A stretch of 64,000 nucleotides of DNA from Eledone cirrhosa (GCA_964016885.1 OZ024743.1:338830001-338894000); one strand, 5' to 3'; shown: positions 4,654 to 61,224, numbered from the stretch's first letter. Notes: generated by a model not told the origin, from the sequence alone. Made by a program: numbers and translations.

Positions 4654-5000
4654 GTAAGTAGTCTAGTTGTTTGTTGTCTTCTGAATAAATAAAACTTGTG
4701 GACTGTACCATTTAATTGGGCAGGTGTAACGTGGACTGTACCATTTAATTAAGCAAGGTGGAACATATGAGGACTGTACCAATTAATTAGTAATGTCCGT
4801 TATCAATATACCATTCAGTTAAACATGTCTGTGGCCTTCATACTTTCATTGGGGTCGTCATTTAATTCATTTGTCTATTGAGAAAGGAGAGAGAGGAGAG
4901 GGAGAGAAAGGTGGGGTGAGTTCATAATCATTTTCATACCTTTGTATCCAGGTGTGTAGTAAATAATTGAGACATGAATGTTTGGCTTAATGTTGAGATT

Positions 5001-7688
5001 CATCATCATCACCGTTTTACGTCCGTTCTTCCACGCTAGCATGGGTTAGACGGGTTGTCCTGTTGTGGGCAGTGTCTGGTCGGCTGGCCATGCCTTGCTC
5101 ATACAGGAACTGATCTGGCTTGATTTCTACAGCTGGATGCCCTTCCTAACACCAACCTCATTTACAGTGAGTGCTGGGTGCTTTTTCGTGGCGCCTACAC
5201 GTCCACTTTACAGTGTGGGCTGGGTGCTTTTTTTGCCGTGGGACCTCCACGACCACCTTGCGGTGGGGGGTGTGGGGGCATATTGTTTATATGCTTCAGC
5301 ATGTACCCATGGGAGGTCGGGTACCCTGTATTACTGCGTGACGCCAGAAGTCACGGTCGTGTGTCATTGACTTTGAGAGGTGTAGTTGGGTAAGGTCGGC
5401 TTTTATCACCTCATCCCAAGTCATCTTGGGTCTCCCCACTCCGCGGTTTCCATCAACTTCTAGTGCTCTGCACCTTTTTATGCAGCTGTCATCCTTCATA
5501 CGCATCACATGTCCATACCAGCGTAACCGCCTCTCCTGCACGCAGCATTTGATTCCTCTTATGCTCAGTCTCTCTCTCAATTCCTTTATGCTTTGTCGTT
5601 CACGTATATTACTGTTACACATCCATCGGAGCATGCAGGCTTCGTTTCTCTCTAATCTACGTAAGTCTTCCACCTTCAGCGCCCAGGTCTCACTACCATG
5701 CAACATCGCTGTTCGGATACACGCATCATACAGTCTGCCTTTCATTCTGAGGGAGAAGCCTTTTGCAGCTAGCAGTGGTAGTAGTTCCCTAAACTTCTTC
5801 CATCCCGTTCTTACCCTAGTTATTGTACTTTCTGAGCACCCACCTCCGTTGCTAATTCGGTCACCTAGGTAGCAGAAGCTGTCTACTGTTTCTACAGGGC
5901 CCTCCCAGAGATTGGTGGTACTTGTTTCCTGTGGCTGTTTGCTTGCTGTTTCAGCACAGCTGCTGCATGTGAATCCTACATTCTTAATTAAGCTTCCTGA
6001 GATCCCGCTACATCTCTTGTGTACCCATTGTTTGCATTTGGGGCAGAGAATGGAGTTCCTACCTACACCTTTCCTACATACTGAGCAAGGCCATTTCCCT
6101 GAGGGGATCTGGGTTCTGTTTTCTCGTCTACTTATAAGGACCTTAGTCTTTGTCATGTTGACTTTGAGGCCCTTTCTCTCTAGTCCCTGCTTCCAGGTTT
6201 GGAATTTATTCTCTAGTTCTACCATAGATTCAGCTATGAGTGCGAGGTCATCAGCATACAGGAGTTCCCATGGGCATCCGGTCTTAAACTCCTCCGTTAT
6301 TGCCTGCAGGACTATGATGAACAGGAGAGGGCTAAGAACAGAGCCCTGGTGGACCCCAACCTGTACGCTAAATTCCTCGCTATACTCATTGCCAATCCTA
6401 ACTTTGCTGACTGCTCCCCTATACATGGCTTGTACCGCTTTCACAAGCCATTCATCTACTCCTAGTTTTCTAAGAGCCCACCAGATTACTGCACGTGGAA
6501 CTCTGTCAAAGGCTTTCTCAAGGTCGACAAATGCCAAGTAGAGTGGCTTACTTTTAGCTAGGTACTTTTCCTGTAATTGCCTCACAAGGAAGAGGGCATC
6601 AGTGGTGCCTTTCCCTGGTACAAACCCAAATTGCATCTCGTCTATATTCACCCGGTCCCTAATCAGCTGTGCTATAACTCTTTCTGTTACTTTCATGACC
6701 TGGTCCATCAACTTTATACCTCTATAGTTTCCTCTATCTAGTGCATCGCCTTTACCTTTGTAGCAGTTGACAATGATGCTACTGCACCAATCTTTTGGTA
6801 TGGCCCCCTCTAGTATTACCTGGTTAACGATACGTGTGGTTATAGTGTGACCTACAGACCCAGATGCCTTCAGCATCTCGGCAGCTATACCCGTTGGACC
6901 GGTTGCCTTCCCTATCTTCATATCTCTGATTGCCTTACTTACTACGCTGCCGCTGACTTGTACTGCTGGTCCCTCTATAGGGTCTACGTGGGGTAGGGTC
7001 TCTTCTTCCCATGCATTCTCCTCATTTAGTAATCTATCATAATGACTCTTCCATGCATCTTTCTTCTCAGCACTTGTGAGGGCAAGCTCACCTTTATCAT
7101 TCCGGATACACTTCTCTCCAATGACATCACAACTATCTCTGACACACTGCCTCGCAATCTTGAATACCTCCTGTTTCTGGTCCTCACGTTGTAAAACATG
7201 CTTGAATTTTCTATCCTCTGCTTCCCTCCTAGCTAAGTATACTTGTCGCCTAGCTTCCCTCTTGGTCTCTATGTAATGTACCCTGCTCCCCCCGTTCTTC
7301 CATTCTTTCCATGCCTGTCTCTTGGCCTTGACTGCTTCATCTACCTTATTGTTCCACCACCAAGTCACTCGCCTCCTGCTTGAGGTCTTACTCCAGCCAC
7401 AAACCTCATCCGTCGCCTCTAGTAAGTTATTTTTTAGGAATTCCCAGTTCTCTTCTACGTTAAATGTCTCTATCTGTTCTTCTTTACTGTCGTAGGCGTT
7501 GAGTAAAATATCTTTAAATCTGTTACTGGTTGAGGGGACTTTCAGCTTCCAGATCTTTCTTCTCCAGGTTGGCCTCTGTTTCAGGGCTCGTCTAGTTCTG
7601 ACCGTGAGGTCGCTGACAACTAAGCTATGTTGGGATGTACATTCCTCACTAGGGAAGGCTTTTGTGTTTACGACCGTCCATCTGTCAC
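5001..7688 (-). mobile_element. RTE LINE subfamily B, 5'-truncated, RT frame intact (copy 1)
   Basis: ORF 5296..7368 with RT motifs (LLYADDL), a Cys/His insert, and a 3' UTR ending in a (GAT)n tail. Confidence 0.95.
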
Positions 7689-7881
7689 ATTATTTCAGTT
7701 AAATTTTAGTTTGGTTCAGTGTATGTAGACGTGTGTGTGTGTATGTATGTATGTATATATATATGTATGTATGTATATTTATATATATATATGTGGCAAC
7801 ATGAATAGACCTGTTATTTTTCTCTAAAAACATTTTTTCCGATTCCGTTCCGCCCGTCCTTTCAACCTTTCTAATTTCTCA

Positions 7882-7925
7882 TTCTTTCTTCTGATGAAGG
7901 ACTAGCATCCGAAACGTTAAGACCC
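7882..7925 (+). ncRNA. Minimal Penelope-type hammerhead ribozyme motif
   Basis: UCUU-CUGAUGA-a-GGA(cuagca)UCC-GAAACGUU-AAGA: core, stem II, palindromic ACGU stem III, 4-bp stem I. Confidence 0.55.
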
Positions 7926-8046
7926 TCTTCATGCTATTTCAAGTGTCAAGCTAAATTATTCCTTCCATATACTTACATACATACATTATATATATATATA
8001 TATATAAACTTCATATGGATTTCCAGAGTCATTAGAGCATCAGATA

Positions 8047-8748
8047 ACGTTGGTATGGTCACGTGATGCGCATGAAAGACGATAGCTGTATAACAAAGTG
8101 CAGGGCAATAAAGATAGACGGTAGCCACGGAATAGGCAGACCCAGAAAAACCTGGGACGAGCTGATAAATTCCGACCTCACACACTTACACCTCTCCAAG
8201 ACAATGTCACTGGACCGAGACCTTTGGCGGTACTCAGTAATAGAGAAGACCCGCCTTACCTAAATACAAAATAAAACCTACTACAGTCAGTAGGCATCTC
8301 TAACAAAATACACCCCCGTCCCACCACCCCCACCCCATCCACACCGCCCCTTTCAATGTAAAGTTATGTTGGTGCCACAACATCCAGGCCGAAACAAATG
8401 AGATCGTGTAGGTGTCACGACAAAAAAACACACAGTCCACGCTGTAATGTGGCCGTGTAGGCAACACGGTAAAAACCTCCCAGCTCCACACTGTAAATGT
8501 AGTTGGTGTTAGGAAGGGCATCCAGCTGTAGAAAACCCGCCAGACAGTCCATGCTGAGGCAACACGGTAAAAACCTCCCAGCCCCACACTGTAAATGTGG
8601 TTGGTATTAGGAAGGGCATCCAGCTGAAGAAAACCCGCCAGACAGTCCTATGCGAGCAAGACAATCACTCTTGCCTCAAGTGGGAAAACCCCCGTCCAAA
8701 CCCATGCAAGCGTGGAACACGGACATTAAACGTTGATGATGATGATGA
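8047..8748 (+). mobile_element. RTE subfamily A 3' fragment
   Basis: RWYGHVMRMKDDS...GRPRKTW C-terminus plus 3' UTR with (GAT)n tail. Confidence 0.9.
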
Positions 8749-15951: not shown

Positions 15952-18631
15952 TCATCATCATCATCATCACCGTTTTACGTCCGTTCTTCCACGCTAGCAT
16001 GGGTTAGACGGGTTGTCCTGTTGTGGGCAGTGTCTGGTCGGCTGGCCATGCCTTGCTCATACAGGAACTGATCTGGCTTGATTTCTACAGCTGGATGCCC
16101 TTCCTAACACCAACCTCATTTACAGTGAGTGCTGGGTGCTTTTTCGTGGCGCCTACACGTCCACTTTACAGTGTGGGCTGGGTGCTTTTTTTGCCGTGGG
16201 ACCTCCACGACCACCTTGCGGTGGGGGGTGTGGGGGCATATTGTTTATATGCTTCAGCATGTACCCATGGGAGGTCGGGTACCCTGTATTACTGCGTGAC
16301 GCCAGAAGTCACGGTCGTGTGTCATTGACTTTGAGAGGTGTAGTTGGGTAAGGTCGGCTTTTATCACCTCATCCCAAGTCATCTTGGGTCTCCCCACTCC
16401 GCGGTTTCCATCAACTTCTAGTGCTCTGCACCTTTTTATGCAGCTGTCATCCTTCATACGCATCACATGTCCATACCAGCGTAACCGCCTCTCCTGCACG
16501 CAGCATTTGATTCCTCTTATGCTCAGTCTCTCTCTCAATTCCTTTATGCTTTGTCGTTCACGTATATTACTGTTACACATCCATCGGAGCATGCAGGCTT
16601 CGTTTCTCTCTAATCTACGTAAGTCTTCCACCTTCAGCGCCCAGGTCTCACTACCATGCAACATCGCTGTTCGGATACACGCATCATACAGTCTGCCTTT
16701 CATTCTGAGGGAGAAGCCTTTTGCAGCTAGCAGTGGTAGTAGTTCCCTAAACTTCTTCCATCCCGTTCTTACCCTAGTTATTGTACTTTCTGAGCACCCA
16801 CCTCCGTTGCTAATTCGGTCACCTAGGTAGCAGAAGCTGTCTACTGTTTCTACAGGGCCCTCCCAGAGATTGGTGGTACTTGTTTCCTGTGGCTGTTTGC
16901 TTGCTGTTTCAGCACAGCTGCTGCATGTGAATCCTACATTCTTAATTAAGCTTCCTGAGATCCCGCTACATCTCTTGTGTACCCATTGTTTGCATTTGGG
17001 GCAGAGAATGGAGTTCCTACATACTGAGCAAGGCCATTTCCCTGAGGGGATCTGGGTTCTGTTTTCTCGTCTACTTATAAGGACCTTAGTCTTTGTCATG
17101 TTGACTTTGAGGCCCTTTCTCTCTAGTCCCTGCTTCCAGGTTTGGAATTTATTCTCTAGTTCTACCATAGATTCAGCTATGAGTGCGAGGTCATCAGCAT
17201 ACAGGAGTTCCCATGGGCATCCGGTCTTAAACTCCTCCGTTATTGCCTGCAGGACTATGATGAACAGGAGAGGGCTAAGAACAGAGCCCTGGTGGACCCC
17301 AACCTGTACGCTAAATTCCTCGCTATACTCATTGCCAATCCTAACTTTGCTGACTGCTCCCCTATACATGGCTTGTACCGCTTTCACAAGCCATTCATCT
17401 ACTCCTAGTTTTCTAAGAGCCCACCAGATTACTGCACGTGGAACTCTGTCAAAGGCTTTCTCAAGGTCGACAAATGCCAAGTAGAGTGGCTTACTTTTAG
17501 CTAGGTACTTTTCCTGTAATTGCCTCACAAGGAAGAGGGCATCAGTGGTGCCTTTCCCTGGTACAAACCCAAATTGCATCTCGTCTATATTCACCCGGTC
17601 CCTAATCAGCTGTGCTATAACTCTTTCTGTTACTTTCATGACCTGGTCCATCAACTTTATACCTCTATAGTTTCCTCTATCTAGTGCATCGCCTTTACCT
17701 TTGTAGCAGTTGACAATGATGCTACTGCACCAATCTTTTGGTATGGCCCCCTCTAGTATTACCTGGTTAACGATACGTGTGGTTATAGTGTGACCTACAG
17801 ACCCAGATGCCTTCAGCATCTCGGCAGCTATACCCGATGGACCGGTTGCCTTCCCTATCTTCATATCTCTGATTGCCTTACTTACTACGCTGCCGCTGAC
17901 TTGTACTGCTGGTCCCTCTATAGGGTCTACGTGGGGTAGGGTCTCTTCTTCCCATGCATTCTCCTCATTTAGTAATCTATCATAATGACTCTTCCATGCA
18001 TCTTTCTTCTCAGCACTTGTGAGGGCAAGCTCACCTTTATCATTCCGGATACACTTCTCTCCAATGACATCACAACTATCTCTGACACACTGCCTCGCAA
18101 TCTTGAATACCTCCTGTTTCTGGTCCTCACGTTGTAAAACATGCTTGAATTTTCTATCCTCTGCTTCCCTCCTAGCTAAGTATACTTGTCGCCTAGCTTC
18201 CCTCTTGGTCTCTATGTAATGTACCCTGCTCCCCCCGTTCTTCCATTCTTTCCATGCCTGTCTCTTGGCCTTGACTGCTTCATCTACCTTATTGTTCCAC
18301 CACCAAGTCACTCTCCTCCTGCTTGAGGTCTTACTCCAGCCACAAACCTCATCCGTCGCCTCTAGTAAGTTATTTTTTAGGAATTCCCAGTTCTCTTCTA
18401 CGTTAAATGTCTCTATCTGTTCTTCTTTACTGTCGTAGGCGTTGAGTAAAATATCTTTAAATCTGTTACTGGTTGAGGGGACTTTCAGCTTCCAGATCTT
18501 TCTTCTCCAGGTTGGCCTCTGTTTCAGGGCTCGTCTAGTTCTGACCGTGAGGTCGCTGACAACTAAGCTATGTTGGGATGTACATTCCTCACTAGGGAAG
18601 GCTTTTGTGTTTACGACCGTCCATCTGTCAC
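15952..18631 (-). mobile_element. RTE LINE subfamily B, 5'-truncated (copy 2)
   Basis: ORF 16254..18311 almost identical to copy 1, with an in-frame 15-nt deletion (KGVGR) near 17015. Confidence 0.95.
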
Positions 18632-18844
18632 ATTATTTCAGTTAAATTTTAGTTTGGTTCAGTGTATGTAGACGTGTGTGTGTGTATGTATGTATGTATA
18701 TATGTATGTATGTATGTATATATATATGTATGTATGTATATTTATATATATATATGTGGCAACATGAATAGACCTGTTATTTTTCTCTAAAAACATTTTT
18801 TCCGATTCCGTTCCGCCTGTCCTTTCAACCTTTCTAATTTCTCA

Positions 18845-18888
18845 TTCTTTCTTCTGATGAAGGACTAGCATCCGAAACGTTAAGACCC
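18845..18888 (+). ncRNA. Minimal hammerhead motif, duplicate of 7882-7925
   Basis: Identical CTGATGAAGGACTAGCATCCGAAACGTTAAGA. Confidence 0.55.
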
Positions 18889-19489
18889 TCTTCATGCTAT
18901 TTCAAGTGTCAAGCTAAATTATTCCTTCCATATACTTACATACATACATTATATATATATATATATATAAACTTCATATGGATTTCCAGAGTCATTAGAG
19001 CATCAGATAACGTTGGTATGGTCACGTGATGCGCATGAAAGACGATAGCTGTATAACAAAGTGCAGGGCAATAAAGATAGACGGTAGCCACGGAATAGGC
19101 AGACCCAGAAAAACCTGGGACGAGCTGATAAATTCCGACCTCACACACTTACACCTCTCCAAGACAATGTCACTGGACCGAGACCTTTGGCGGTACTCAG
19201 TAATAGAGAAGACCCGCCTTACCTAAATACAAAGTAAAACCTACTACAGTCAGTAGGCATCTCTAACAAAATACACCCCCGTCCCACCACCCCTCACTAT
19301 GGCACCTCTCAACTCTATTGTGAGTTATGGGTCTATATATACATAAAGTATATGTAAGATTCTGAGGTTCATTCCTTGTTATTTAGCCCCAGATATGCCG
19401 TGATCCAGATCTATGATCGTAAATTGAGGAAGGTGTGGCTGCTATTTCTAACTGTTGTAGAGATTTGCTCATGGACTCCTCTTTTATTG

Positions 19490-44759: not shown

Positions 44760-47700
44760 ATGGCAACGACAGGTGATCAAGATATAGTAGCTGAGGATAT
44801 TAGCCTCCTCGCCACTGAACAGTCGACGGCGACTCCAACAGCTGTAACCGAACTGGTGGTTATACCTCAACAACAGTTGTCAACCGCCTCGTCCACTGAT
44901 GTCCTGGCAGCCTCGGCTACTGTCATCTCTACAGGCACACTTGAACAACAACATGAGCAGAGCTCGGACAAAATTAGCGAAGATTTACTGGTGAGTAAGG
45001 CTCTTATTGAAATTGGTGCCAACGAAGCTTGTCGAGATTTACTCAATGCCGGTGACGAATTCGAAGATTTCTCTGCTCTGTCTTCAGCTATAGCGGCTGT
45101 CTGTAAGCTGACAAATGCTGTCTTCACCATTCATGACTGCCAAACAATTGCCAAAGCTAATAGATCGCGATGTGTCAAAGTCGAACCATTAGACGAGAAA
45201 TTCAAATACAAATATGTCAAATATGTTTGTAAACAGTTTGGTTATTCAAGACGACGGAGTGTGCCAGGCATACGACCCAACCAACGGTATTTCGACCCAC
45301 TTCTTTACAATCTCTTCTTCTTTTACTAATTTCAGTGTCATATCCAACCCAGCACTTTATTTTATCAATATATGTTTATAGAACGAAATCTAAAACCGTT
45401 GTAAACATAAATGCAAACGCACGTACACACAATAGTAGTAGTAGTAGTAGTAGCAGGGTGATTTAAGAACTGGAAAGGGGGACGGGAAAAGCTTCATTAT
45501 GAATATGACAAAAGTATTTAAGTGAAAGATCAACGCCGAGAGCAGAGGGCAAAACATCAGCATTCCTGAGTGATGGCAGTGAAGTTGTTACAACATCACG
45601 ATTCTGATGATGGCTGTATGGATAATGCGAAAAATTGCTGCTTGGCGCTGCCTGAAGGAGTGATGCCATTAGAAGTTGCTGAAGTCGTTGAGATCTCCAG
45701 TCGACAGAAGAGGTTATGACCTGTTGTCCATGCAAACTTGTGTGTTGATGACCTAGTTTTTATAGCTGAATTTGTGGAAAAGCTAGAGAAGGAATTTCTG
45801 GAGTGTTAACAGAACCTAGAATAAAAAACGGTGGAGACTTCCGCTCTTCTTAGCCCCCGGAACCACATCCCCACTCACTGTTGTCGGAACGGAGTTGGTC
45901 TTCCGCAAGTTCGAGCCCCACGAAGTGGAGTGGTTGTTCCAGCGCGTTTCCCTCGCCGTCCACCGGGGCAATGTATTTTCCATTCTGTCAGCCGGATGCG
46001 GAGGTTGAGGATATTAGTTTGGACATCATTTTCTCTCTATTTATTTAAAAATCTCTTCAAAGGCAGTGCTCACATTCTATTACTGAACCAAAAGTGCCAA
46101 GAGTAAACTTAGCAAAGACCAAAGTTTTAGTAAGTTGGAAGAAAGATAATGTGTTCAATATATAGAGAATTAGTTAGGAACTCTATACGAATTACACTGT
46201 AAAATAACATACAAATACACACACACACACAACTGGGTGCATTTTACCAGCACTACCACTTACAGTGTGTACTGGCACTATCACATAATAATTGTTTCTA
46301 CTTTTGGCACAAGGCCAGCAACTACCCAGTGTATTACTGGTACTTTATTTTATCGACCCCGTAAGGATGAAAGGCAAAGTTAACCTTGGCGCAATTTTGG
46401 TGAAAAGTGAAAGTAGATTATATCGATCCCAGTAATTGACTGGTACTTTATTTTATTGACCTTGGAAGGATGAAAGGCAAAGTTAACCACAGCAGGATTC
46501 GAACTCAGAATGTAAAGAGCCAGAACAAAGATCTCAAGTCATTTTTTCCAACACTCTAATGACTCTGCCAATCTACTGTCTTTATAGTTCTTATTCTTGA
46601 GAGTGTTGTGGGGGCAGAGTCCTCAAACACTCCTTCCGCTGGGTCCTGTCAGAAGCAACCGTCCCCAACTGATACGGCTGGATTCCCAAGTGAGACCAGC
46701 CAAGCTCACGGATGTTATCCAACCATCTTCCTTGGGGTCTACCCCTGGGTCTCTTTTTGAGTTGGTTTTGCCTGTGAAATCTGTCCAGCGATTCTTTCCT
46801 GAGATATTCTAACCACATGTCCATAGTATCAGAGCTGTGATCTCTCAATTCAGAGAAGTAATGGCTCTACCTGAAGCAACTCTCTGATCTCTGAGCTACA
46901 CACAGTCAAGTAGTCAAGTAACGTTACTCCAAAGACATTTTGGAGGAACCCCATTTCAGCCGTTTGTATTTGCGATTATATTCTTTCTGTCAGTATAGTT
47001 CTAATAATAATAATCTGTTTTCTCTTTGACTTGTAGAACCTACAAAACTGGCTGTCCTGCACTGATTGCTGCGTCTGTGGATCGAGAGAAACAGAGGATG
47101 GTGATACGTACCATCAACTTGAACCACTCACACCAGATGTTAGGCCACATGTACCCTGAGAACCGGCGGCAGTCATTGACACCCAACGTCCTCACTGAGA
47201 CCTATCGGCTCATCGATATTGGCATGAAAACTAAGAACATCCGCGAGTACATCTGTAATGTGACCGGCAAACAGCTGACCACAAGGGACATTAATAATAT
47301 GAAAGCCAAACGAAAAAAAGAACTCACACCTCCTCTAAATCACAACACCAGCAACATTGTCAACAACAACATTCATAATAATAATAATAATAATAACAAC
47401 AGCATAGTCAGTCGTAATGACGGACACCACACAAAGAAAAGGAAACGAGGGACACATGATATAGTAAATTATTATTTTTTGTGGAATTTCATTTTTACTC
47501 CTGTGTGTACCCAGTTTACAAAGACACTGTATCCCTGCATGTATCTGGTTTAGAATAGGTATACTGTATCCCTGTCTGTATTTGGTTTAGAATAGGTACA
47601 CTGTATCCCTGTCTGTATTTGGTTTAGAATAGGTACACTGTATCCCTGTCTGTATCTGATTTAGAATAGGTACACTGTATCCCTGTCTGTATCTGGTTTA

Positions 47701-50700
47701 GAATAGGTACACTGTATCCCTGTCTGTATTTGGTTTAGAATAGGTACACTGTATCCCTGACTGTATTTGGTTTAGAATAGGTACACTGTATCCCTGTCTG
47801 TATCTGGTTTAGAATAGGTACACTGTATCCCTGTCTGAATCAAGTTTAGAATAGGTACACTGTATCCCTGCATGTATCTCGTTTAGAATAGGTACACTGT
47901 ATCCCAGTGTATCTGGTTTAGAATAGGTACACTGTATCTCTGTGTGTATTTGGTTGAGAATAGGTACACTGTATCCCTGTGTATCTGGTTTAGTATAGGT
48001 ACACCATATCCTTGAGTCTGTCTGGTTTAGAATAGGTACACCATATCCCTGTGTGTAGCTAGTTTAGAATTAGTACACTATATCCCTGTTTCTATCAGGT
48101 ATACCTACTATATAGAAGTCAAACTCATTGGCTTATACATACATCTATAAGACTAGAGTTTGATTTTAGGGATATTTGGCTGGTATTTCTATCAAGTCTA
48201 ACAACCATGTAGAGGTCTTCTTCATTGACTTATATATACATAAGACAGAAAGGTGACATTTGAGGAAAATTTGGTAGCTATTTCTATAAAGTTTAACTAA
48301 CATGTAGATGTCTCCTTTGTTGTCTCATACATACATAGACAATAGGGTGTGATTTGAGAGGGATTAGGCTTCTATTTCTAGTATAATAACCATATAGAGG
48401 ACTCTCTTATTGTCTCATTCCAACAGTGTTTCTCTTTCCTCTCTCTCCCCTCACTTCAAATATTCACTGATTCCCTGACATAACATTATTTTGCAGGAAG
48501 TAACATCTCCAATATCTAGCCATGTGTTTGATATTTCCAAAGGTCTACCAGCAATTGGTGTTCCTGTTTTACTATTTATTCAGATAGAGAAACGATCCTG
48601 GAAACTGCTTCAGAAAAGGTAAGAAACTTTCTTGAGTCTTTTGTTGAACTTTTCTGTTGAAACTACTCATTGCTTTGTTTAGTTTTAAGTTTGTACTGGT
48701 TCATACCGGTTTGGTTTAGTTCGAACTTGTCCGTACTGGTCTGATTTTGTGTGGACAATTTAATACTGGTCTTGACTGGTCCATACTGGTTTGGTTTAAT
48801 TTGACAGGTCATACTGGTCTGGACTGGTCTATACATGCTTGGACTAGTTCATACAGGTTTAGTTTGTCTGATTCATACTTATCTGAACCAGTTCATACTC
48901 GTTTTGTTTAGATTCATCCATACTGAACTGATTTTGTCTTGACTGGTTCATACTGATCTGGTTTAGTTTGGGCTCAAATTGCTGGCCTTGTGCCTAAATT
49001 AAAAACCATTATTATAATAATAATTTACTGATCCGTGGATCAGACCAAGGAAACTATATTCCCATTGGTCTTTTCCACTGCTGATACTATCTGACATATG
49101 GAGGTGAGATTGCACTGAAAACACACTGAGCCTATTCAGATACCACAAAGTACCCTAACTAACTTTTTTTTAATCCTGCCGATCCACTGCTTCTAGATTT
49201 TATTGATCCCTAAAGAATGAAAGGTAAAGTTGACCTTGGTTTATATTTGAACATAGAGTGCAAGAACAAATACCAAAAGCTCTAATAACTCTGCCAATTA
49301 TTATTATTAATAATTTCAGACAGAATGCAAACTATTCGCCTTTTGCCTAAATTAAAATTCTTATCATTATAAGGATGAGTAGAGCATCGGACAATAGGAT
49401 GTATAGTATTTGTTTCAGCCATTTACATTCTGAGTTCAAATCTTGCTGAGGTTAGCTTTGCCTTTCATCCTTGCGGGGTTGATTTAATTGACTGCCTCCC
49501 CTTCCTTCAAAATTGTTGGCCTTGTGGCAAAAGTAGAAACAATTCATCATCATCATTTTACATCTGCTTTTCCCTGCTTGCAAGTGTGCGACGGCAACTG
49601 ATTTTGGCTTATTGATTTTTATTCATTATTATTCCATTGTTGCCTCTCTTTTATTTTCATTAAACCTGTTTCTACGCACACACATATACACACTCGCACT
49701 CAATGTTTTGTTCTATGCTGTCCTTAATGTTTCCTTCATGTAAATCCTTTGTGGTTAATAATGATGAAATCATCATTATTATTGTTAGGAAGAAGGGTGG
49801 TGAATTGGCAGAATCGGTAGAGCGTTGTACAAAGGATTAGCTGTATTTGTTCGGCTCATTACATTCTGAGTTCAAAGCCTGCTGAGGTTAGCTTTGCATT
49901 TCATCCTTTCAGGGTCGATAAAATAAAGTACCAGTAATGCACTGGGGTCAATTTAATCGACTTTCCTCTCCCTGAAAATTGTTGGCTTTGTGCTCAAATC
50001 GGAAACCGTGGATTGGCAGTATTGGTAGCGGGTTGAACGCCATGCTTTGACTCGTAGAGTTACGACACTTGCCATTCTGAGTTCAAATCCCGCCAAGATT
50101 AACTTTGCCTTTCATCCTTACGGGGTCGATAAAATAAAGTACCAGTAATGTACTGGGTAATTGCTGGCCTTGTGCCAAAAGTAGAAACAATTATTATTGT
50201 TAAGGGCAGTGGACTTGCAGTATTGGTAGAGCATCGGACGCCATGCTTTGCAGCATAGTTACGCCCCTTTACGGTCTGAGTTCAAATCCCGCTGAGGTTA
50301 ACTTTGCCTTTCATCCTTACGAGGTCGATAAAATAAAGCACCAATAATGCACTGGGATAATTGCTGGCCTTGTGCTAAAAGTAGAAACTGTTATTATTGT
50401 TAGGAAGACAATGGATTTTCAGAGTCGTTAAAGTATTGTAAAAGCTGCCTTATGCATAAATTATATCTTATTAATTATTTCTGTATTTCCTCTGTATTTC
50501 TCACAGTGCCAGCAGCATTGATGGCCACGTTACATTCCTTGCTGGACAGAAAATTGTTAAGACAACTGTGTATAAGCTACTCTTTGATACAGAATCTTAT
50601 TTCAAAATCACTGACCAGTCAGCTTTTTATCCTTACATTGAGGTAAGGAAATCTTTGTTTATTGTCTGTGTGTGTGTGTGTGTGTGTGGCTGTCTCTGTG

Positions 50701-51143
50701 TCTGTGTGTGTGTGTATCTGAGTCTCAGTGTGTTTGAGTTTGTATGTGTGTGTGAGTATATCTGTGTTATATGTGTGTGTGTGTTTTTGTGTGATTATTG
50801 AAGTAATGGTGTGGGGATTGGTTCATTGGTAGGGGTAGTGGTTACAGTGGTGTAATACTGTAGTGTAGATAGTAGAACAGTGGTGTAGTAAGGGTAGTGG
50901 TGAAATAATTAGGTGAGGTTTACCTATTACTAATAAAGTCTATTGATTAATAAAATATATTTATTTACTTTGCAGCTGGTATTCCAGGTAATGGACCCAA
51001 CATTGATACATCATATTCCCATTCAGATCAGCCCTCACAGCTATTCCTGCCACAGGGAACTCCTCCAGCCACACCTCGGTGTAACCTCATCTTTTTCCCA
51101 GATGTCACCATCACCCATATCTCCCGTGCCACTGATATCGTGA
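44760..51143 (+). CDS. MULE-derived zinc DNA-binding domain (ZSWIM3_N/FAR1-like) fused to a degenerate HIU hydrolase/transthyretin domain, 459 aa (exons 44760-45286, 47037-47463, 48497-48618, 50507-50642, 50976-51143)
   Basis: All introns GT-AG and phase-consistent (1380 nt total). N-part: GDEFEDFSAL...YKYVKYVCKQFG...RPNQR-TYKTGCPA...NHSH...YPENRR...TGKQLTTRDINN. C-part: SPISSHVFDISKGLPAIGVPV...DGH...YKLLFDTESYF...FYPYIE-LVFQV...HHIPIQISPHSYS. Confidence 0.8.
47525..48090. repeat. 37-bp minisatellite, about 15 copies, in intron 2 of the fusion gene
   Basis: Unit ggtacactgtatccctgtctgtatttggtttagaata. Confidence 0.92.
48497..51060 (+). CDS. 5-hydroxyisourate hydrolase/transthyretin-like domain (three exons)
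   Basis: TTR/HIUase signature segments HVFD.SKGLPA.GV.V, YKLLFDT.SYF, FYPYIE.VF, HIPI.ISP.SYS; phase-2 and phase-0 introns at the canonical TTR/HIUase positions. Confidence 0.9.
49795..50390 (+). mobile_element. Three tandem Meta-domain-like SINEs (family also at ~3825-4450, 20385-20500, 46290-46575, 52890-53105)
   Basis: ggattggcag..ggtagagc head, GAGTTCAAATCC B box, GCCTTTCATCCTT.CGGGGTCGATAAAATAAAGTACCAG core. Confidence 0.75.
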
Positions 51144-51735
51144 GAATGTCACAACTGTTACACCTCCAGATACAACACAGATGGTCCTCACTCTTAACTT
51201 AACTGTTCCCCAGATGTCACCATCACCAACATCTGCTCTGTTGTTGCTCTCATGAGTGTATTGCTACTGTTACACCTCCAGATACAACACAGTCCTCACT
51301 TTCACTCAAATGTTCCTGCAGATGTCACATCTCCTGCATTGCTGATACTATGAGAATGTCACAATTGTTACACTGTCAGATACAACACAGTCCTCACTTT
51401 CACTCAAGTGTTCTTGCAGATGTCACATCTCCTGCATTGCTGATATTATAAGAATGTCACAATTTTTACACTTCCAGATACAACACAGATATTCCTCACT
51501 CACTCATCTGTTCCCCAGATGTCACCATCACCAACATCTGCTGCATTGTTACCACTGTTATACCCCCAGATACAATACAGTCCTCACTCCCACTCAGCTA
51601 TTACCACATCACTTGCGTCTCTGATATAACGAGAGTGTCGCTATTGTTAAACCTCCAGATACATCACAATCCTCACTTTCACTCGAGTGTTTTCCAGATG
51701 TCACATCACTTGCGTCTCTGATATTATTACACCTG
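51095..51735. repeat. Degenerate ~110-120 bp tandem repeat overlapping the end of the fusion CDS
   Basis: cagatgtcac...gagaatgtcacaa.tgttacacctccagatacaacacagtcctcact repeated about 6 times. Confidence 0.85.
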
Positions 51736-56239: not shown

Positions 56240-59200
56240 TTAGATTAATCGGAAATCACAGACAAGAGAAAGATGGTCAGATGGATAAGAATGTGAAGGT
56301 AGACGGTTCTGTCCGATATCTTTGTCTGTGGGTAGGTCTAGCAATGAAATAACTTCCAGAGAGCCCTGACTGCACCAGATATAGTCAATTGTCCGACATA
56401 TTTCCACTTGTCCTGTTGGTGTGTCTCTCACTTTCCATGTTGTGTATGATGGCTCGCTGCCTTCTTCAGACAACTTTGTGTATGCACTAAACAGCTTAAG
56501 ATCATCATTTATGTAAGACTGGTAGACCTTCTCCATCGGGTCAGCATTGAAGTCTCCGCAGATGATAACTGGCCACGTTAGAGCTTTCTCCCGAACGTAA
56601 TCCAAGATGAACATACCTTCTTCGTGCCGTAAATTGTCGAAGCCGAGTTTTGCTTTCAAATGGGTGACAATGACTGAGAATTTATCTTTGCCTTCTTCAG
56701 CACCAGAGTTAATCTTAAACAAGCAGTGTATAGCTACTTGGTTTGTCAATTGTCCATTCATTGTTTTCAGACCAAGTTTCTGGTAATCCAACAGTTTTAA
56801 GCAATCTTTTCGATAAAAGAGAGCACAGCCATCAGGTCCTATACAGTTGCTGTAATATAGACAAGGGGAATTTGGTTTGGGCTGGAAAATACCAGAATAA
56901 CCAACAGATGTCAGCTGTGAAGAGAGGAAGTCATAGTGATCAACTTCTTGTAAACAAATAAGGTCTGGATTGTTCTTTATAATTCCTTCTAAGATGCGAA
57001 ATTTGCGTGTGTCCCATGAGAGGGCACTCAGAGGACACAGGATAAAATTGTCTGTTCCTGTTGACAATGCTGTAATAGATAGAAATCATTTCAATATAGA
57101 AATAAGAGAATTATAGTGAACACAGGCAATTCTATCTTTTTCACTTTTCTATCTATCTACGAAATGTCAATCTACCTGTCTATCTGCCTATCTACCTATC
57201 TACCTGTCTATCTATCTGTCTACCTACCTATCTACCTACATACCTATCTATCTGCCTACCTATCTATCTACCTACATACCTATCTATCTGTCTACCGACC
57301 TACATACCTATCTATCTGCCTACCTACCTATCTGCCTGTCTATCTGCCTACCTACCTACCTATCTATCTGCCTACATACCTATCTATCTGCCTATCTACC
57401 TATCTATCTGTCTACCTACCTATCTATCTGCCTACATACCTATCTATCTGCCTACCTACCTATCTATCTGTCTACCTACCTATCTACCTACCTATCTATC
57501 TGCCTACCTACCTATCTACCTACCTATCTACCTACCTATCTATCTGTCTACCTATCCCTCAATTTATATATATGTGTGTGTGTATTATAAAGAGTCGGGG
57601 CCATACTCTACTATCCTAAGTATTGAGTTCTCTGTTGAGTAATGGTCTAACTAGTTTTAAACTGGTTCTGTCTTGATATATGTGTGTGTGTGTCTGTCTA
57701 TAAAGCTATCTACACACGCTGAGGCTACGCCATCCCCAGGTATTCCTGACCGGTGTGGCTGTCGTTTGTGAGACAAGCTCTTCCAAAACTCGTCTCACTA
57801 ACAGAGCTGCAGTCCTAGGTCATGCGAAGACTGAAAATGGGTGCCTGGCACCTCGAGTGCCTTCATGCACTCACAGCCCTCTACCAAGCGGAAACGGCAA
57901 TCAGCAGAAACTCCACTTCGACATTCTATAGGGGATTAGTGGAGGATAAGTGCGACAACGTTCTTGGGGAAACACCAGGCATCGAGGAGGATGAACTGAC
58001 CAATCTGTTCGTGAGGACTTTCTGTCCAGGGCCTCTGGATAACTTCCAGAGGTCTCTGGCCTGGCAGTGCTACCAAGGAGCTCTACCAGTTCGATACAAA
58101 ATCTACAGGCACGGACGCCCTGGCAGAGATTCTGCCAAAAGGACCTGTCCAACATGCGAGCAAGACATCGAAACCATTCTGCACGCAATTGTTCAGTGCC
58201 CACGGGTAACCAACCTGTGAAATTATTTTGAACAGTTACTGTCACGTGTGGAACGCATCCAGTTGACAGCCAAGTCCATCGTGAGGTTTACCACGCCGCC
58301 TTCATTTAAGAACGAAGGAGAGGCGGTTTCCTCTGTCTGGTGGCTATGGCGACAGAGGTATTATGGTGGACGAGGTTAGAAGGACTGAGAACAAATACCT
58401 TTCTGTCCGGACAACAACTTATCCCCTTCTTTAAGTACCACTTCAGAAGGAAGGTGAGAGTGGAGAGAGAGGTGCTACACCCCAGTAAATTCGCTGAAAG
58501 GTGGGTGAATGTGGCGAAAATGGCCCGAGTGAATGGGCCTTCTCTGTATATAAACCTGTAGGTTGAGGAAGATAAACAGAGGGAAGACAGGAACACCTAC
58601 AAAATGTGTTCCTGGTGTTGAGGGTAGTTCTATCCACGGGGTGTAAAACAACCCTGCAGTAACGTTCTCCCCTATTGGGGATTTCAATTGTTATTTTATT
58701 ATATATAGTTTATTGTTATTTATTAATGTTAAAGTTATATGATTTTTATGTAAAACCCCCACCGTCACATCTTGTAATGTCCCATTTTTGTACGGCCCTG
58801 TGGCAAATAAAGAAAGATATCTATAAAGCTATCTGTCTACCTATCTCTATACCCTCATACACATGCTTTATCTATAAATCTCACACAGAAGGCTTTGCCA
58901 TGCCTAATCCAACTCTATGCATTCTCAGTTCAAATCAGGCCTCATCCTTGCCAAAAGTTGTAACCAAAAGGAAGTATCAGCAATGGAACAAAATATCAAT
59001 GAAAACATACTTTCCTTGGTTTAATCTGATGATTAGCTCATTTAAGAAACTTTGAATAATGTCCCAACCACTTAATGAGATCATCACCATCATCATCATT
59101 TAACATCTGTCTTCCCTGCTAGCAAGGGTTGGATAGGTCTTCACAGACCAAGTCAGTATTCAAGTGGAGCTGTTGACTTCTCAGATGTGCCAGGGACCTA

Positions 59201-59702
59201 CATCTTGTTTACATACATTCTGGTGCTCTACCAAGAGCATTTTATCATGACCCCAGCACTAGGGAGGTTGTCATGTCTTTGACACAGCTGAAGAGTACTT
59301 CTGACTTTGTTTGGTACAGCTGAAGAGCAGAAGATTCAACACATGAAACAGATGGAAGCAACACTTACATACATACTTGTGCTCTAGCAAGAGCATTTTA
59401 TCATAACCCCAGCACTAAGGAGTTTGTCATGTCTTTGACACAGCTGAAGAGTACTTCTGACCCTTTGTTTGGTACAGTTGAAGAGCAACACTTACTAATA
59501 CAGAAAGTTTATAGAGAAATTTACCATAAGCTAGGACATTCCATTGTAGCAGCCGTATTTTGGTAGCATTTTTATTCCTTTCTGTGGCAATTAGTGGCAA
59601 CTCGGTGAACTCTCTATTCATAAAATCAGGAAGACCCTTCTTCTTAGATTCATCTTCGATTTTCTTCAGTAGTTCTTTACATTTTTCATTGGCGTAAGGC
59701 AT
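56240..59702 (-). CDS. NOCT: Nocturnin (CCR4-like EEP NADP(H) phosphatase); exons 59702-59525 and 57069-56240, 335 aa, further upstream exons possible
   Basis: QWNVLAY-A-LS, DLICLQEVDH, PKPNSPCLY, GPDGCALFY, THLKA, ICGDFNA, EPSYTTWKVR, TIDYIW, RLPSHSYPSDHLSL; phase-1 GT-AG intron. Confidence 0.93.
57150..57556. repeat. (CTAT/CTAC)n compound microsatellite
   Basis: Direct inspection. Confidence 0.95.
57715..58815 (+). mobile_element. Tx1/L1-clade LINE 3' fragment in the nocturnin intron
   Basis: zf-RVT-like WQCYQGALPVR...TCPTCEQDIETILHAIVQCP; AATAAA near the 3' end. Confidence 0.75.
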
Positions 59703-61224
59703 GTTTGGGACCTGTGGATGGTAACATGAATACAGAAAAGAAATGGAAGCGTGAACACATATATACATACGTCTAACCCATACCAGCATTGGAAATAGAC
59801 ATAATGGGAAATAGGCACAAAGCCAACAATTTTGGGAGTAAGGGAAAAGTTGATTACATTGACTCCAGTATGTGACTGGTACCATATTTTCTTAATCCCA
59901 GAAGTATGAAAAGCAAAGTTGACCTCAGCAGGATATTAACTCCAAACTTAGATAGTAAAGAGGGGAAGAAAAGGTAAAGATGAGGAAATAGGAAGGAGGG
60001 GGGGGGGGGCATGAAGGGGAGAAATAGAAGGAATAGTGGAAAAGAGGTGGCAGAAGAGGTAAAGAGGGGGACAGATGAAGAAAGAGGGGGTGGAGAAACG
60101 AGGTAAATGGGGGAGAGGGAAAGAGAGAGAAGAGGGGGAAGAAGGGGTATGTTGGGATTTTATTAACCCTTTAGCATTTACATTATATATAGTATTATAT
60201 TTTCACAGTAAAAACTTTATCTCATATAATTATCTCACATAATATTGAATCTGAGATTCTGATATTATTTATTTTGAGAACAATACCTTAACATCAGTAT
60301 GAGTGGCCTGTTATGGCCAGTTTTAACAGAAAGAGGTGACAGAATTCTGGCCGGATATGGCCGATTTAAATGCTAAAGAGTTAATGACTAACTGTTCATA
60401 GAGACACTGCTTGTAAACCTACTAAAATCAATTTGTCCTGTGGTGTTCGAGACATTTAGAGTAGCTGGGCCGCAAACAATGAAGTTCTTGTCATCTTTGG
60501 CAGCTTACCTTACCAAGGTATCATGTGATGCCAGTGAAGGTACTTGTTGTTCCAGAGCATTAGCCTCATTATCACATCCAGCCAGTGTGTTAGATTGCCT
60601 CAGAAAGTATTAGTGACAGGCTCCGATATCCCTTGTGGTATGTGACTGATTGACAGACACACTTAGTGTTGAATCTATATTACTATGTAAAATATTTACG
60701 TAATGAAGTAATAAAGGTATATGTGTTGAATTTTAACAGCTATGACATTTGTGTTTGTAATTTCAAACTATTAAGAAATAACAGAAAAGAAAATTCCCAC
60801 CGAAGAAAATTGCGAGGCTGGGAAAATCTTTGTGAAGTTATAGTTATGTTCCAAATACCAGCTTAACCCTTTAGCATTTAAACCAGTCATAACCGGCCAG
60901 AATTTTCTCACCTCTTTCTGTTCAAACCGGCTAAAACTGGGTGCTCATACTTCTGTTAAGATATTGTTCTCAAAATAGATAATATCAAAATCGCATAGAT
61001 TCAATATTATGTGAGATAATTATGTCAGATAAAGGCTTTACCATGAAAATACAATAGTAAATATTGAGTAATGTAAATACTAAAGGGTTAATAATAAAAT
61101 AATTATATTACCATAACCTTTCAACTTCTTGATTATTTTCGAAATTATTTGTAAATTAGAAGCACGGTCTTTTATCAGAAATATTATAAGGAAAGAATTA
61201 TAAAGTTAGTTCCATTGATACATT

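Follow-up and report, generated by a model that had tools for sequence, protein, structure and literature searches.

The derivation of transthyretin (TTR), a secreted protein, from 5-hydroxyisourate hydrolase (HIUase, or Urah) is the textbook transition from an enzyme to a binder, and it is treated as a vertebrate event. In the published switch, as set out in the accessible parts of the sources, Tyr116 is replaced by Thr and Ile16 by Ala, and the channel is opened (PMC13751858; PMC4324301; residue numbers of the HIUase domain are throughout those of the zebrafish enzyme, through alignment with 2h1x); two leucines (TTR Leu17 and Leu110) are conserved in HIUases and TTRs alike, according to the available part of PMC11348317. 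N-terminal domains on the HIUase tetramer core are known from the Urah-Urad proteins (allantoin synthase) of plants, diatoms, and bacteria, which are intact bifunctional enzymes. Another route to new functions is described, in the accessible text of PMC1702500, for the WRKY-GCM1 family of the Mutator-like (MULE) transposases, members of which have repeatedly been recruited as transcription factors: in yeast Aft1/Aft2 and in the plant factors of the FAR1/FHY3 type, the Cys-Cys-His-His domain has been freed from the transposase core, and in other captured transposase domains (POZ/BTB with mod(mdg4), Pipsqueak, BED) a transposon DNA-binding domain is combined with a host oligomerisation or effector domain. 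The present analysis concerns a gene in a 64,000-nucleotide stretch of DNA from Eledone cirrhosa (GCA_964016885.1 OZ024743.1:338830001-338894000; the window), in which a domain of this transposase type is joined to a HIUase-like domain with a remodelled active site; we consider it rather probable that this host gene of coleoid cephalopods encodes a domesticated nuclear DNA-binding protein with a HIUase tetramer, probably inactive, as its scaffold. Compared to the Aft1/Aft2 and FAR1/FHY3 types, the partner would here be a disabled metabolic enzyme, and compared to the other captures, the host module would be a tetramer of enzyme origin whose ligand channel has been remodelled; neither "transthyretin" nor "isourate" occurs in the available text of PMC1702500.

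The fusion gene occupies positions 44760-51143 of the plus strand and is composed of five exons, which join in frame to encode a protein of 459 residues, with no stops or frameshifts. The three exons described in a first-pass annotation of the window are its 3' end; the N-terminal fusion, the changes of Leu14 to Phe and of Leu107 to Gln, and the C-terminal extension of 26 residues were all absent from that annotation.

Exon 1, 44760..45286, plus strand: ATG at 44760, low-complexity leader, conserved helix, and first two-thirds of ZSWIM3_N, including Cys157 (45228-45230); closes at a GT donor in phase 2.
Exon 2, 47037..47463, plus strand: remainder of ZSWIM3_N (Cys182, His206, His208), three-helix bundle, KRKK and KKRKR, and a linker rich in Asn; its phase-0 end is the fusion junction.
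Tandem array, 47524..48100, no strand assigned: 15.7 copies of a 37-bp unit, inside the fusion intron.
Exon 3, 48497..48618, plus strand: start of the HIUase-like domain, with His12 kept, Leu14 changed to Phe, and Ile16 kept; phases 0 to 2.
Exon 4, 50507..50642, plus strand: 136 nucleotides, with Asp50 and the FYP motif kept and Arg52 changed to His; phases 2 to 0.
Exon 5, 50976..51143, plus strand: His103 and Pro105 kept, Leu107 changed to Gln, TYRGS changed to CHREL, Ser/Pro-rich tail of 26 residues, and TGA stop.

The three HIUase-like exons have AG/GT ends and splice in frame, and each of them matches PF00576 (HIUase/Transthyretin), with E values of 0.001, 2e-5, and 0.02 for exons 3, 4, and 5, respectively; exon 1 matches PF21599 (ZSWIM3_N) with an E value of 5e-7, which reaches about 1e-12 in full orthologues. 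Within the 64-kb window, neither a second HIUase copy nor an alternative last exon was found. Among shorter proteins, a search with the HIUase region yielded three candidates and no match, a result without weight as to an intact paralog, since its word filter lost every ordinary HIUase too.

In the active site, His12 (SSHV, codon at 48521-48523) and His103 (HHIP, 51012-51014) are kept, Arg52 is replaced by His (codon CAC, 50526-50528), and the C-terminal TYRGS reads CHREL (51048-51062), Tyr116, Gly118, and Ser119 having become His, Glu, and Leu, with Arg117 kept. The two histidines, the Arg52 change, and the reading CHREL at the YRGS signature had already been reported by the first-pass annotation, and all of them are real. 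In addition, Leu14 is replaced by Phe (48527-48529) and Leu107 by Gln (51024-51026), Ile16 is kept (48533-48535), and the chain continues for 26 residues beyond CHREL, the free C-terminal Ser being gone. PMC13751858 names ten residues of the channel, of which the window retains five (His12, Asp50, His103, Pro105, and Arg117); at least eight are retained in 104 of 120 other HIUase-like domains, taken from the best 150 of 1818 matches in a search of 1.84 billion protein representatives. In a set of 123 further domain rows, Arg52 occurs in 112, Tyr116 and Gly118 in 117 each, and Leu14 in 118. His52 and CHREL are common to all six full-domain cephalopod database proteins (P0003, P0004, P0005, P0006, P0010, and P0012) and, therefore, are not an assembly error; contigs of run X4 across exons 3 and 4 (records 16 and 23) agree, with zero coding differences. 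The earlier view of a "selectively" dismantled site is an overstatement, since identity to intact HIUases is no more than 25-43% over the entire domain. PF00576 recognizes it at 85-88 bits against a cut-off of 25.3 (P0006 and P0010), and comparison with the two families, as had been suggested, confirms membership of the HIUase/TTR fold family and places the sequence nearer to HIUases (72 bits) than to TTRs (38-50 bits).

Catalysis has probably been lost in the fusion protein, because, in the accessible parts of the sources, substitution of Tyr116 by itself abolishes about 99% of HIUase activity (PMC13751858) and deletion of the C-terminal tetrapeptide strongly suppresses catalysis (PMC8272043), the carboxylate of the terminal Ser being modelled as holding the substrate and the Arg (PMC8272043). 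Further differences from HIUase/Urah (PF00576; zebrafish 2h1x) are the N-terminal half of 318 residues and the absence of a PTS2-like (type 2 peroxisomal targeting signal) motif, which three of the five intact HIUases examined possess and all six fusions lack; shared with it are the fold, the five channel residues given above, the FYP motif, and the predicted homotetramer.

The altered domain is highly conserved. That of the window is 97% identical to its counterpart in Octopus bimaculoides and 84-85% identical to those of other coleoids; between the cuttlefish-like protein P0010 and O. bimaculoides (octopuses and cuttlefish having separated roughly 270-300 million years ago), identity is 84% in the HIUase domain and 88% in ZSWIM3_N, against 40% in the linker and 38% in the tail. 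In a C-domain tree (50 hand-picked of about 157 rows, without TTR, unrooted, and with bootstrap unsettled), all coleoid sequences of this domain fall in a single clade (100/100), the stem of which measures 1.78 substitutions per site and the crown of which is up to about 0.3 deep, and between the window and a contig of X1 (a guessed-RNA run from another organism), 11 of 13 changed codons are synonymous (15 of the 24 differing letters being listed). These comparisons point to fast change followed by fixation under purifying selection, and not to decay.

The N-terminal half is made of a ZSWIM3_N zinc domain (WRKY-GCM1-type, Mutator transposase-like) and a small three-helix bundle. The zinc domain scores 48 bits with PF21599 (cut-off 27.8), its ligands C157, C182, H206, and H208 are invariant or nearly so, and basic stretches, in the window KRKK and KKRKR, occur in all five coleoid proteins checked and are possible nuclear signals. 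As to the rest of the transposase, no Pfam match to the MULE RNase H-like core or to the SWIM finger was obtained in the orthologues, no tblastn match to the core of five MULE proteins in the window, and no remnants of terminal inverted repeats around exons 1-2. Among 25 non-cephalopod relatives sharing only the N-domain, 12 carry a MULE-type RNase H core, two a KRAB, one a BTB, and one a nucleoplasmin domain; capture of ZSWIM3_N is seen in P0016, P0026, P0077, and P0149, by nucleoplasmin (paddlefish), KRAB (two), and BTB (one). When a model of this half from Octopus vulgaris was searched with Foldseek, yeast AFT2 and plant WRKY occupied the top six rows, the best being an AFT2-DNA entry (E 0.007), and alignment with AFT2/WRKY gave Z scores of 7.7-8.0 over 74-76 aligned residues at a root-mean-square deviation of 2.5-3.0. 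These resemblances suggest that the N-terminal half may bind DNA in a sequence-specific manner.

The two domains occur together, among the best 150 of the 1818 matches, only in coleoids and in Capitella teleta ELU04385 (P0014). Annotations of the two-domain protein exist for O. bimaculoides (XP_014779890), Argonauta hians (GAB1601753), and Sepia pharaonis (CAE1234312), and intron-free versions are called on Logan contigs 1.9-2.3 kb in length; other Logan proteins (P0007, P0008, P0011, P0013, and P0159) terminate at the equivalents of exon 1 or exon 2, which suggests shared intron positions. Exons 3 and 4 are contiguous on one X1 contig, and their splicing is thus observed in a relative; in run X7, for which no run type is stated, the exons are covered and the unique intron bins are not. 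In a limited library, at the level of titles and abstract openings and without supplements, the literature held nothing on this fusion or on cephalopod HIUase, and the words "cephalopod," "octopus," and "mollusc" are absent from the HIUase/TTR review PMC13751858 in the text available. Both domains are already recorded in databases for these proteins and transposase-domain capture is known; a remodelled HIUase as the partner appears to be undescribed.

The monomer model of the HIUase domain superimposes on zebrafish HIUase 2h1x with a template modelling (TM) score of 0.89, and its Z scores are 18.4 to E. coli HIUase and 17.3 to human TTR. Four copies of the P0010 domain are predicted to form a homotetramer, with a score of 0.93 against 0.02 for the best control, agreement between runs in 100% of contacts, and a predicted local distance difference test (pLDDT) value of 91; the tetramer mark was reached by 21 of 30 microbial solved pairs and none of 23 monomers, and the corresponding eukaryotic counts were 17 of 29 (for animals, 7 of 16) and 0 of 30. 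In the model, the dimer-dimer interface would include Phe14, Gln107, and His116, with Phe14 against His116 across the channel. Arg117 and the Phe of FYP are both kept in the fusion protein, and these we take, from the alignment, to correspond to an Arg/Phe pair of E. coli HIUase. That pair forms a monomer-monomer contact in the bacterial enzyme, according to the accessible part of PMC11348317. The suggestion of a pseudoenzyme turned oligomerisation module, made in the first-pass annotation, is supported to this extent: the domain is probably a pseudoenzyme subject to purifying selection, and it may oligomerise, the predicted tetramer being possibly a consequence of likeness to solved HIUase/TTR tetramers.

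The best explanation for the origin of the gene would be exon shuffling at the DNA level, in which two exons of a MULE transposase, carrying the zinc-binding WRKY-GCM1 domain and the helical bundle without the catalytic core, replaced exon 1 of a HIUase gene at its phase-0 first intron. The intron phases 0/2/0 and the middle exon of 136 nucleotides are the same as in human TTR (exon 3), the introns of which lie at c.69/70, c.200, and c.336 (PMC2945965, in the part available). The HIUase domain would next have evolved rapidly, with loss of Arg52, of Tyr116, and of the free Ser at the C-terminus, before becoming fixed; its stable homotetramer would present four DNA-binding heads in the nucleus, in the manner of the BTB, nucleoplasmin, and KRAB partners of the same DNA-binding domain in other animals. 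Most likely, the product would be a four-part gene regulator and not a hormone carrier.

The Capitella protein shares the fusion architecture; as a single gene model, it shows a different and more complete loss of the active site, with Leu12, Gln52, and no YRGS. It falls apart from the coleoids in both domain trees (the N-domain tree having 30 rows, after removal of six near-duplicates or fragments and filtering of short matches), with score ranks of 43 of 49 and 150 of 157; a single clade of coleoids and Capitella is not rejected by approximately unbiased (AU) tests (p 0.23 and 0.098), the branches being long, and the data are compatible with either one or two origins of the fusion.

Several points weigh against the domesticated DNA-binding scaffold. 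The predicted tetramer may reflect memory of the solved HIUase/TTR tetramers, and it was modelled from the cuttlefish-like orthologue and not from the window protein; the structural match of the N-domain is middling (Z about 8, with no Foldseek row at E ≤ 0.001). Support from read contigs reaches the exon 3-4 junction and not the exon 2-3 junction, and two Octopus vulgaris models (P0001 and P0002) end after exon 3, by either mis-annotation or lineage-specific truncation. Some residual activity is possible, both catalytic His being kept and replacement of the Arg by Lys in Klebsiella HIUase costing only about fivefold in activity, as given in the available part of PMC8272043. Finally, a bare scaffold leaves the fixed, His-rich pocket unexplained.

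This last point is addressed by the alternative that the protein is a ligand- or metal-sensing transcription factor, in which the rebuilt pocket binds Zn/Cu or a purine metabolite and tunes DNA binding, a possibility that we regard as tentative and that is compatible with a scaffold role. His12, His52, His103, and His116 would line the pocket, each of them occurring twice through the two-fold axis, and Cys115 and Glu118 would lie close to them. All seven changed pocket positions are invariant across three divergent coleoid proteins, each coleoid domain contains 6-7 His, where 45 others average 3.9 and have at most 6, and Phe14, Gln107, and His116 would meet in the modelled dimer-dimer interface; moreover, the E. 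coli HIUase structure 2g2n contains Zn (according to its title), and an intact site is frequent in the insect and copepod fusions with DNA-binding modules discussed below. However, 82 of 113 domain positions are invariant in any case and, therefore, the seven-out-of-seven invariance does not reach significance (p about 0.11); the architecture is shared by Capitella, in which other residues stand there (Leu12 and Gln52), and allosteric coupling is not obvious across a linker of such length and low conservation.

Less probable still is a chromatin-tethered protein that is an enzyme to this day, whether as a HIUase of low activity or as a hydrolase that has acquired a new specificity. The five retained channel residues are in its favour, as is the observation that no stand-alone cephalopod HIUase occurs among the 19 matches looked up by name (of the best 150 of 1818); against it stand the published effects of the Tyr116 substitution and of the tetrapeptide deletion, together with the replacement here of Tyr, Arg52, Gly, and Ser and the addition of 26 residues.

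An independent transthyretin, with a pocket binding thyroid hormone or a similar hydrophobic ligand, is improbable. The TRANSTHYRETIN parallel drawn in the first-pass annotation holds for the site and for the tempo: as in vertebrate TTR, the domain is HIUase-derived, the central channel has been changed, the fold is shared to a similar degree with both families, and a long stem is followed by a short crown. The chemistry is different. TTR replaces nine of the ten channel residues and has an open pocket (Thr116 and Ala16), whereas the fusion protein keeps five, retains Ile16, and has His at 116; Leu14 and Leu107 have become Phe and Gln, and in the model Phe14 makes contact with His116 over the interface. 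A TTR-like pocket chemistry was rejected on this account. The scores likewise favour HIUases, and, in contrast to the secreted TTR, the protein has a DNA-binding domain, basic stretches, and no clear N-terminal hydrophobic leader (by crude hydropathy, the coleoid maximum is 1.2-2.0 against 2.8 for an Owenia model). That gene finders have merely joined a transposon relic to a downstream, decaying HIUase pseudogene is very improbable, for although the O. vulgaris models finish after exon 3 and comparable fusions (HTH_psq in Pinctada, integrase-H2C2 in Lytechinus) are single records that may be annotation joins, the gene has no stops or frameshifts, both domains are 84-88% identical between the cuttlefish-like protein and octopus, full-length intron-free products are found on Logan contigs, and the changes between X1 and the window are mostly synonymous.

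Other DNA-binding modules are found on HIUase domains. A Cys2-His2 motif that we call BED-like, in a region where Pfam named no domain, lies N-terminal to HIUase in 11 representatives (P0037, P0050, P0060, P0066, P0086, P0089, P0101, P0116, P0123, P0124, and P0157), of which all four looked up are from insects; their channel residues range from all ten, in four proteins, down to six, and 10 of the 11 fall in one supported tree branch, alongside one other row. A cluster of 51 proteins from arthropods in the atlas, about 523 residues in length, may belong to the same family. Feature searches of the ESM Atlas yielded nothing usable. A Brinker domain is joined to an intact HIUase in the 28-member P0032 cluster (Neocalanus, Calanus), in which copepod transcriptome proteins are included. 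Two further groups were noted in passing: P0061 (JGI record, 256 residues), in which the HIUase is strongly degenerate, with 4 of 10 channel residues left, and follows a short helical N-terminal stretch of LEM-like look without a Pfam name, and combinations of cadherin with HIUase (P0067, P0080, P0094, P0100, and P0131; an atlas cluster of 73, mostly chordates), which may be read-through models of neighbouring genes.

Around the fusion gene, a 98-bp tandem repeat (51268-51488) lies directly past the stop codon, and the variable C-terminal tail seems to extend into that repeat family. Downstream and convergent is a Nocturnin gene (56240-57085 and about 59427-59891, both on the minus strand), the large exon of which matches human nocturnin with an E value of 6e-74; it can be used as a synteny marker. 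Upstream, a pair of 3.3-kb copies (5000-8333 and 15958-19297), 98.8% identical and 11 kb apart, with open reading frames that read as a reverse transcriptase element of the LINE (long interspersed nuclear element) type, looks like a recent insertion or local duplication.

The gene is a candidate for a cephalopod transcription factor of transposon origin, and its small domain lends itself to assay. With respect to the vertebrate transition from HIUase to transthyretin, the cephalopods present a separate case, in which the same pocket has been remodelled with another chemistry and then strongly conserved, and therefore a natural replicate for how this scaffold gains functions. More speculatively, and with a probability that we put low, eukaryotes may repeatedly have made the HIUase tetramer a module of transcription factors (WRKY-GCM1, BED-like, Brinker) that act as unrecognised purine- or metal-sensing regulators, the cephalopod protein being a second, non-vertebrate birth of a "transthyretin-style" pocket, His-rich and nuclear; if the wider set of fusions between DNA-binding domains and HIUase is real, it would suggest that invertebrates sense metals or products of purine breakdown in the nucleus.

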